64,000 nt of DNA from positions 72,478,001-72,542,000 of the forward strand of contig OX597825.1 in assembly GCA_951406725.2 (NCBI GenBank). The letters are read 5' to 3'. Both the position numbers and the translations under genes were made by a program. Positions 20,371-37,159 of the stretch are shown one piece after another. Position 1 is the first letter of the stretch, and each line of letters begins with the position of its first letter. Below the pieces are notes generated by a model. That model saw only the letters and a list, made by a program, of their open reading frames with translations, made no database searches and had not been told where the DNA came from. This stretch comes from Octopus vulgaris (lineage: Eukaryota).

Positions 20371-20656
20371 TACATACATTCATACATGTATGTCTGTATG
20401 TATGTACATGTGTCATATAAAATTGTTGGAGAGATTTTGTCAGAAATGTCTCCGCCACATGTTCAGAATTAGCTGGTCCTCACTCATTCCTGACACTGAA
20501 GCTCTTGCTGAAGTTAGGATCACATGAATCTAAAGCATTCCTGTTAGGAATCAACTATGACAGACAGGCCATCTCATCCATACGGGTAATGAGCGCATTC
20601 TCAAACAGATGACATTTTAAAAACAAATCCGAAAAGCCTTAAATTATCTTACAATA

Positions 20657-20874
20657 TTCCGGAGATGTACTTGCATAGCAAGTGATTTGATCTGAGATCG
20701 TGTGCTGAAACGAAAACAATTGCAGCGTGGAAGGTGTTTGTAAGCCATTTAAGAAACACACAAAAGCCGTACGATTCACTTCAACATTTAAGTTTAAATT
20801 GTCAAAATAGTTTCGTCGCTTTAAGACCGCGATCTGTTCACTGACAAAAATCCGTGCTGCATCTGAGCACGTTG
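20657..20874 (-). mobile_element. 218-bp hammerhead-bearing insertion with 13-bp target-site duplication
   Basis: Perfect direct repeats TTATCTTACAATA at 20644-20656 and 20875-20887 flank it. Confidence 0.7.
20799..20847 (-). ncRNA. Minimal type I hammerhead ribozyme, G3:C8 core variant
   Basis: Minus strand: TTGTCA GTGAACA gaTCGC ggtcttaaa GCGAc GAAA ctat TT TGACAA. Perfect 6-bp stem I, stem II TCGC/GCGA, 1-bp stem III. Confidence 0.62.
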
Positions 20875-21029
20875 TTATCTTACAATAGTCTTCAATCACT
20901 TGCAGCAGATGGTGAAGTGTGGAGAGCTACGGTTTAGAGCAGTGTTAAAGCTTTTGAGCTTGAGAGAGTTAAGGCAAGCTGAAATATTAAGTAAATTTCG
21001 TAAAAAAGATAATAATAATAATAATAGTA

Positions 21030-36080: not shown

Positions 36081-36326
36081 ATACCAGCTTTCGAATGGTG
36101 AGTTCCATACAAAGGCACAGTCGAACTCGGTGGCATTTGAACTCAGAACGTAAAGTCAGAAGAAATGCTGCTAAGCATTTTTTTTCCGGTGCGGTAACGA
36201 CTCTGCCACCTCGCTGCCTAACGGAAGACACATTTTAGTCATAAAAAACACACACACGAAAAAAGAAATCCTGTTAACACCACTGAAACGTTTATTATTT
36301 GATTATTTGATGTCAAAAATGTTGCT

Positions 36327-36397
36327 GCACCAACTGCGACTTGGTCACTGACATGTTACCACGCGTCTCGCATAACTGACCAAATCGCAGTTGGTGC
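36327..36397. repeat. Hairpin, 21-bp arms and 29-nt loop
   Basis: GCACCAACTGCGACTTGGTCA / TGACCAAATCGCAGTTGGTGC (one mismatch), with decayed outer arms to about 36300-36425. Confidence 0.85.
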
Positions 36398-37159
36398 GAC
36401 GAAAATGTTGACGCCGAATTATAAATATGAAAATAAAATTAGCAACTTCTATGTGATTTTTTTAAAATTAGCTAAAATGCCTCTATAGTTTTAATTTCAG
36501 CACACAGTCTCAGATCAAATCACTTTCCAGACAGGCACATCTCCGAAATAACCAATTATTGCCGCCCACCAATCTAAAATATTATGATACATTTCTTCAT
36601 ACATAAATTCTTATACTGCAAATTATTTTTCTTGTCATTTACATTTTAGAGTTAATATTTTAAAAATCAAAACTGACTGGATAAATGATGAAACCATAAC
36701 ATTTCTTTTTTGAAATCTAAGCTGTTTTTATTGTTGAGTGGCTTTTCAAATCTGAGTTTCCTTCCTCCGCTTCACGATATGAAATGTTCAAATTTATACA
36801 AAAGAGAAAATGAGATACTCGTTTTTATTTTTTTATTCTTAAACTATTATATCCTTCAAGGAGGAGCATGCTTTAATGGTTTCATCGAACACAACCGACA
36901 CCACTATATTATTTATTGTTTTAAGTCTAGTATTTCTGGTGGGGGGGTGTTTTGTTTTATGTTTTCGTCTCTTTTGCCGAACTACGACGCTATCAGAAAA
37001 TAAACAAACCAATACCAGTTGCGAAAGAATGTCGAAACAAAGGCATGTACACACGCACAGACACACATGCAAACATACACACATACATATAATACATACA
37101 CACATATGAATGTATGTGTATGCATATGTGTATGTGTGTCTGTACAAACATACACACAC

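Follow-up and report, generated by a model that had tools for sequence, protein, structure and literature searches.

A natural G3:C8 swap in the minimal hammerhead motif of a Penelope-like element of Octopus vulgaris

The closest described systems to the motif reported here are the minimal type I hammerheads of metazoan Penelope-like elements (PLEs), which it resembles, as these are described in PMC4209133, in its place in a pseudo-LTR (pLTR), its type I order and its occurrence mostly as solo copies, and also in the bulged nucleotide lying between residues 9 and 10.1, the G10.1-C11.1 pair, the short palindromic helix III and the common U17. It differs from them in its core, which is GUGANCA here and CUGANGA there. 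C3:G8 has been regarded as a near-invariant pair and search descriptors incorporate it, and G3:C8 motifs are therefore invisible to the descriptors and to Rfam. A compensatory change at the 3:8 pair is known in nature as U3:A8 (Perreault et al., 2011, PMC3088659); our motif shares with these core variants a compensatory 3:8 change, but theirs is not G3:C8. The U3-A8 of Schistosoma is the only 3:8 covariation reported in the accessible text of Cervera and de la Pena (2014, PMC4209133). In a PLE hammerhead, an engineered C3G/G8C double change partly restored activity (Frangieh et al., 2024, PMC11167929), partial restoration by the same double change is given in PMC8495972, and G3-C8 is stated to work better without C17 (Kalweit-type data, 'data not shown', PMC3884650). 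An earlier note on this locus had taken C3G/G8C to be the double swap that restores activity; restoration is borne out by these papers, but only as a partial one. Two U3:A8-core hammerhead motifs with a palindromic helix III (CATG and CCGG) were also seen in other repeat families, at L145:8345 (+) and L147:5518 (+).

A further point of comparison is the Poseidon element PAc of Anolis (PMC11167929), which likewise has a hammerhead pLTR adjoining the start of its ORF, two internal RT starts that define the tail, and an uncut template RNA; its hammerhead cleavage is reported to be dispensable for insertion in vitro. The natural core of PAc is C3:G8 and overlaps the start codon, and its published tail is 30–40 bp, whereas here the swap is natural, the ATG comes 56 nt after the predicted cut site and the 3' tail is approximately 55–60 nt.

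The window (the whole stretch of 64,000 nucleotides that was analysed, positions 72,478,001 to 72,542,000 of Octopus vulgaris contig OX597825.1, assembly GCA_951406725.2) holds an insertion with the following surroundings, all coordinates being those of the window.

20425..20643 (+): host left flank, the decayed 3' region of a LINE (paralogue comparison)
20644..20656 (+): left copy of the target-site duplication (TSD), 13 bp (sequence; single copy in the host paralogues)
20875..20887 (+): right copy of the TSD, 13 bp (sequence)
20888..20985 (+): host right flank, LINE, which continues the left flank in the paralogues

The earlier note had described a perfect 13-bp TSD around a 218-bp insert, and this stands. 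The direct repeats TTATCTTACAATA at 20644–20656 and 20875–20887 are identical over 13 bp with 218 bp between them, and when the insert and one repeat are taken out the decayed LINE frame becomes continuous. We take this host LINE to be RTE-like. The insert is absent at that point in all 14 host-LINE paralogues examined: the alignment of seven runs uninterrupted through the site and holds a single 13-mer-like word, two are deleted at the site and five are divergent or interrupted. Since the paralogues show an empty site with a single word, the repeats are a real TSD. No empty allele was seen in the contigs of four public runs (four organism labels, one possibly the source sample), where cover of the flanks is sparse. 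The host LINE copy is itself without approximately 65 bp that are found in its paralogues, at 20613–20614, just upstream of the insertion site.

Between the two TSD copies lie the following features of the insert.

20657..20867 (-): solo pLTR of Penelope-like element family A (95–98% identity to 39 other scored full-length matches)
20868..20874 (-): seven extra nucleotides at the 5' junction, with a G directly before the inferred start, this G lying inside a 6-nt micro-inversion derived from the 5' end of the element itself (sequence, junction survey)
20659..20748 (-): first 30 codons (90 nt) of the element ORF, reading from 20748 to 20659; the copy stops at the downstream one of two preferred 3' ends

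The insert is a high-copy repeat (1,530 candidates, of which 40 were scored, with identities of 95–98%), and several of the 40 scored repeats are adjoined by an inverted partial copy. Longer copies continue upstream across a microsatellite-rich UTR of approximately 1.1 kb and reach a GIY-YIG and RT frame on the strand of the motif. The pLTR terminus occurs twice at locus L133 (5517 and 9778), 4.26 kb apart with an RT/GIY-YIG ORF between; L148 has direct pLTR matches at 2882 and 7818, and in L152 and L155 the terminus runs directly into the ORF. Because the same terminus flanks the RT/GIY-YIG ORF and reads into the ORF start, we identify the insert as a solo pLTR. The full element is approximately 4.3 kb, with two pLTRs, an RT and, at the C-terminus, GIY-YIG. 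It follows from the ORF start and first 30 codons at 20748–20659 that the insert is not wholly non-coding, as had been supposed. The suggestion that an element moved as a unit is right in that this is a mobile insertion with a TSD, but not in that it is a self-contained unit. An open frame of 69 codons that crosses the insert was discarded, the conserved frame being a different one that starts at 20748, and a tRNA-SINE reading of the plus strand was dropped because pLTRs flank the ORF and the terminus reads into it. A transposase remnant, presumably mariner-like, lies in the 3' UTR of the element (L062:720-1608, minus strand), and a 240-bp tandem repeat with units approximately 99% identical was seen at L066:7586-9001.

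The element protein matches the GIY-YIG profile PF01541 at amino acids 915–1005, its C-terminus (E 1.8e-5); its match to the RVT_1 profile is weak (E 0.052), with the RT motifs YVDD and DKSG present. It has a CX3CxxC linker, which fits the CX2-5CxxC definition, and two Cys within GIY-YIG. Its relatives bear RT or GIY-YIG domain protein names, the best named one being an Octopus vulgaris protein near-identical to sister family B. An RT followed by a C-terminal GIY-YIG, the CX2-5CxxC linker and the two Cys are as reported for Neptune/Nematis EN+ PLEs (Craig et al., 2021, PMC8557442), as are tandem and inverted insertions and (TA)n bias; Poseidon is described as being without this linker. In the family itself, inverted 5'-truncated copies, a 3' tail and (TA)n bias are all present. 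On these protein and copy features, the insert is a fragment of an autonomous EN+ Penelope-like element of Neptune/Nematis type, an assignment accompanied by a tree without named PLE references.

Might the insert instead be an independent non-coding SINE or retrozyme-like unit that looks like a hammerhead by chance? Most copies are short and share both ends, some with TSDs, as such a unit would. We nevertheless consider this scarcely credible, and it is refuted by the ORF start inside the insert, by the flanking pLTRs, which make it the terminal repeat of RT/GIY-YIG elements, and by homologous motifs of the sister families, which occupy the same place and have a canonical core; moreover, a single unit is found here, against the usual tandem.

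The hammerhead motif lies on the minus strand of the insert.

20799..20847 (-): minimal type I hammerhead motif; its core is G3:C8 with A7, a G is bulged out after A9, and position 17 is U (sequence, alignments)
20835..20841 (-): core strand GUGAACA, with G3 at 20841 and C8 at 20836 (copies and genome pattern matches)
20833 (-): private change of G10.1 to A, which breaks the conserved G10.1-C11.1 pair (G in 28/30 copies; approximately 99% of depth in the four runs)
20810 (-): private change of A15.2 to C, which breaks the AAUAUU palindrome of stem III (ATAT in 27/30 copies; approximately 99% of depth in the four runs)
20804..20805 (-): site at which cleavage is predicted from hammerhead numbering, following U17 (20805)

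The motif is as the earlier note had drawn it, with each part in its place: stem I is formed by 20847–20842 with 20804–20799 and stem II by 20833–20829 with 20819–20815, and the strand 3' of stem II reads GAAA (20814–20811), CTAT (20810–20807) and UU (20806–20805). Rfam covariance models gave no matches at E<=10 on 20640–20900, and a further Rfam scan gave no hammerhead, only microsatellite-driven miRNA matches. In family A, a Watson-Crick 3:8 pair, U4, G5, A6 and A9, the GAAA, the A15.1-U16.1 pair and H17 are all present; among the 100 matches listed, the literal core CUGANGA is absent and GUGAACA is found in 93. A bulged nucleotide after position 9 together with a G10.1-C11.1 pair closing stem II is found in 28 of 30 family copies but fails in the window copy, which has A10.1. 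Helix III is palindromic, as AATATT in subfamilies A0 and A1 and as AATT in A2, and is broken in the window copy. Minimum free energy folds pair G3 with U17 and so lengthen stem I. With G10.1A and a broken palindrome, the window copy is probably inactive. The weak, dimer-dependent cleavage expected in the earlier note agrees with what we predict for the family, but the 1-bp stem III on which it drew does not hold, CTAT being decay private to this copy.

The swapped core is a property of the family. When the 30 closest copies were aligned, G3 was present in 30/30, C8 in 29/30 and GTGAACA in 28/30. A search of the genome with a pattern that joins the core to stem II gave 5,127 exact matches, and the reversed control gave none, so the motif is not a chance occurrence. 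Leaving positions 3, 7 and 8 free gives 6,147 genome matches, and the first 100 of these listed comprise 95 with G3:C8, five with one change and none with C3:G8. Across the core, every alternative letter is below 5% in the contigs of the four public runs. The older subfamily A2, for which no ORF was found within 1.5 kb of its copies, has G3:C8 in 11 of 15 cases, A3:C8 or A3:A8 in three, C3:C8 in one and C3:G8 in none, and one of its copies is in the window.

36310..36548 (strand not assigned): older relative of subfamily A2, an inverted pair, the inverted arm of which has a GUGACCA (G3:C8) core at 36330–36352 (-)

Stem I is 7 bp in family A and stem III is palindromic at two lengths; loop II varies among A0, A1 and A2 with core and stems unchanged. 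The fixation of GTGAACA that the earlier note had asked about is thus seen in the closest copies and genome-wide, and the G3:C8 core is natural, fixed and retained in A2. A single metagenome match to the motif, which lacked stems I and III and fell within coding sequence of a bacterium, was judged to be chance.

We compared family A with sister families that have C3:G8 cores at an equal distance from a homologous ORF start. Family B has a CUGAUGC core, with C3:G8 in 19 of 21 instances, and an RT approximately 55% identical to that of A; the core of family C is CUGAAGA and differs from that of A at exactly positions 3 and 8. Family D, known from one copy, has the core CUGAUGA and the same inner stem I as A.

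L191:2274-2322 (-): single copy of family D, canonical core, followed by the homologous ORF start

An RT tree of 48 rows (10 from this genome and 38 of 94 relatives) places A as sister to B+C in one clade with support of 99/98. The RTs are 45–55% identical across families, yet U4, G5, A6 and GAAA are invariant, and compensatory changes are seen in stems I and II. In an alignment of 11 rows, which are few, related and hand-picked, 87% of cells were paired against 22–46% in slid controls, both sides had changed in 6 of 14 pairs, and the 3:8 pair was GC in six rows, CG in four and other in one. Three covariation measures exceeded all 500 shuffles; two did not rise above the shuffles, double-change pairs (125/500) and pair types (405/500). 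In B, C and D, pairing is poor in the outer part of stem I. Catalytic constraint may be loose, because B has C at position 9 and the stem III palindromes of B, C and D are imperfect. U17 is fixed in A, and C17 is found in older B and C. Within family B, U17 is found in the youngest copies, as against C17 in older ones. This family has many near-identical copies with open frames of 1,310–1,312 aa (L139:2637 and 7225, L138-L143), and by this token is likely to have been recently active. Since G3:C8 is fixed in A and its sisters have canonical C3:G8 at the same place with compensated stems, we conclude from these alignments that the motif is a natural swapped-core minimal hammerhead. Its direction, C3:G8 to G3:C8, would follow from the published consensus, no outgroup motif having been seen.

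The junctions of the copies bear on how units such as that in the window arose. In 32 position-sampled copies, 14 of the 3' ends fall 28–35 nt into the ORF, 17 fall at 84–94 nt and one elsewhere, which resembles the two internal RT starts of the Anolis element (PMC11167929). The 112 motif instances divide into 57 with a long 5' junction, in part selected for length, and 55 with a short one; of the short-junction copies, 50 (seven of them from one tandem array) begin within a stretch of 8 nt that lies just upstream of stem I. At one position 9/9 copies, and at another 5/5, have a non-templated G ahead of the start, the window copy included. The chance of 9/9 is about 1e-4, and the G could derive from the inverted arm in at least four of the nine cases; its presence suggests that copying reaches a 5' cap. 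Among other solo copies, TSDs of 8–13 bp are clear in 4 of 18, a count that misses repeats further from the junction, those of the window copy among them. We propose that a capped transcript would start approximately 10–15 nt upstream of stem I and that the element RT would prime at a nicked AT-rich target, start internally approximately 90 nt into the ORF and reverse-transcribe approximately 210 nt of the uncut RNA as far as the cap. A pLTR-started transcript copied in this way would thereby yield a 210-nt unit like that of the window. An origin of the short copies from spliced RNA, considered on account of a branch-point-like word and an AG before the pLTR, is not favoured, as the 5' ends span 8 nt with no single junction. 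At L155:1135-1165 and its equivalents in long copies, the branch-point-like word, a pyrimidine tract and the AG immediately precede the start of the pLTR, and together they might serve read-through transcripts as a splice acceptor. A tandem array at L167:1747-3011, in which eight units of pLTR fragments of approximately 170–190 bp were seen, each with G3:C8 and with (TA)n between, would favour dimer formation within one transcript.

The explanation that we favour, and regard as probable while short of secure, is that the insert is a retrotransposed solo pLTR of a Neptune/Nematis-type PLE and the motif the element's minimal type I hammerhead, with a family-fixed natural C3:G8 to G3:C8 swap and predicted slow, dimer-only cutting. 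Helix III would be completed when two RNAs join by way of the palindrome AAUAUU, and slow cutting after U17 would follow, with U17 avoiding a Watson-Crick G3-C17 trap. U17 may be permissive rather than a defect, because helix I would be lengthened by G3-C17 and because C17 is reported to impair G3-C8. On its sequence, the family form is likely to cut slowly and in a dimer-dependent manner.

Among the copies listed that hold 21 nt after the cut site, 98 of 100 continue through it. Those broken 2–3 nt from it come from one locus (two rows) among the listed copies, two of 29 copies break near it in the computed subset, and no pile-up of genomic junctions at the predicted cut site was seen among the listed copies. 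Integrated copies therefore come from uncut RNA, and there is thus no fossil of cutting. Such a supply of uncut RNA would also be expected if the element were the same but its motif no longer cut, the hammerhead-derived fold being retained in a different role at the mRNA 5' end (in binding the RT, in starting translation or as promoter sequence). We rate this as a lesser but serious possibility. Hammerhead mutants of the Anolis element are reported to transpose normally in vitro, with no RNA-seq reads ending at the cut site (PMC11167929), functions besides cleavage are allowed for by Cervera 2014 (PMC4209133), and family B has undergone A9C. Against this stand features that a catalytic fold requires: the 3:8 pair has been preserved through a double transversion, the unpaired U4, G5 and A6 and the GAAA are invariant across families with RTs this divergent, and the palindrome has been kept at two lengths.

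The same junctions weigh differently on an efficient ribozyme in the cell, helped by a protein or by tandem pLTRs, whose cut RNAs are never integrated. Full elements hold two pLTRs in one transcript, the 7-bp stem I of family A is long, and loss of the cap would take cut RNAs out of the pool. However, thousands of copies derive from uncut RNA, G3:C8 is reported to give partial rescue only, and minimal PLE hammerheads are described as slow even as dimers (PMC4209133); we consider efficient cutting very unlikely. A bolder proposal within the favoured explanation of slow, dimer-only cutting, which we put forward as doubtful, is that selection has detuned the ribozyme through the G3:C8 swap and U17, so that a hammerhead at the 5' end of a capped mRNA would cut only when pLTR RNAs pair via the palindrome, and full-length mRNA could lose its cap in trans to transcripts from the thousands of solo pLTRs.

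A natural G3:C8 hammerhead was not found in the literature searched; beyond it, the variants of PLE hammerheads in Lunse et al. (2017) may bear on novelty, as may the first supplement file of Cervera 2014 and those of the 2026 bioRxiv preprint. None is present in the accessible text of PMC6765202, PMC6155905 or the 2026 bioRxiv retrozyme preprint, and four GUGANCA forms and 'Octopus' gave no matches in the accessible part of supplement file 2 of PMC4209133. Both the motif and the class of element are known, the finding being a variant of the former, and the laboratory double mutant was already known to be partly active. What it adds is one G3:C8 motif in more than 5,000 intact copies in a single genome, with solo-pLTR junctions that give in-genome support for internal RT initiation, and a fold that is conserved, yet uncut RNA supplies the integrated copies. 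If detuning were true, the family would have made a copy-number brake from a ribozyme. The C3:G8 and G3:C8 sister families in one genome amount to a natural experiment on the function of PLE hammerheads.
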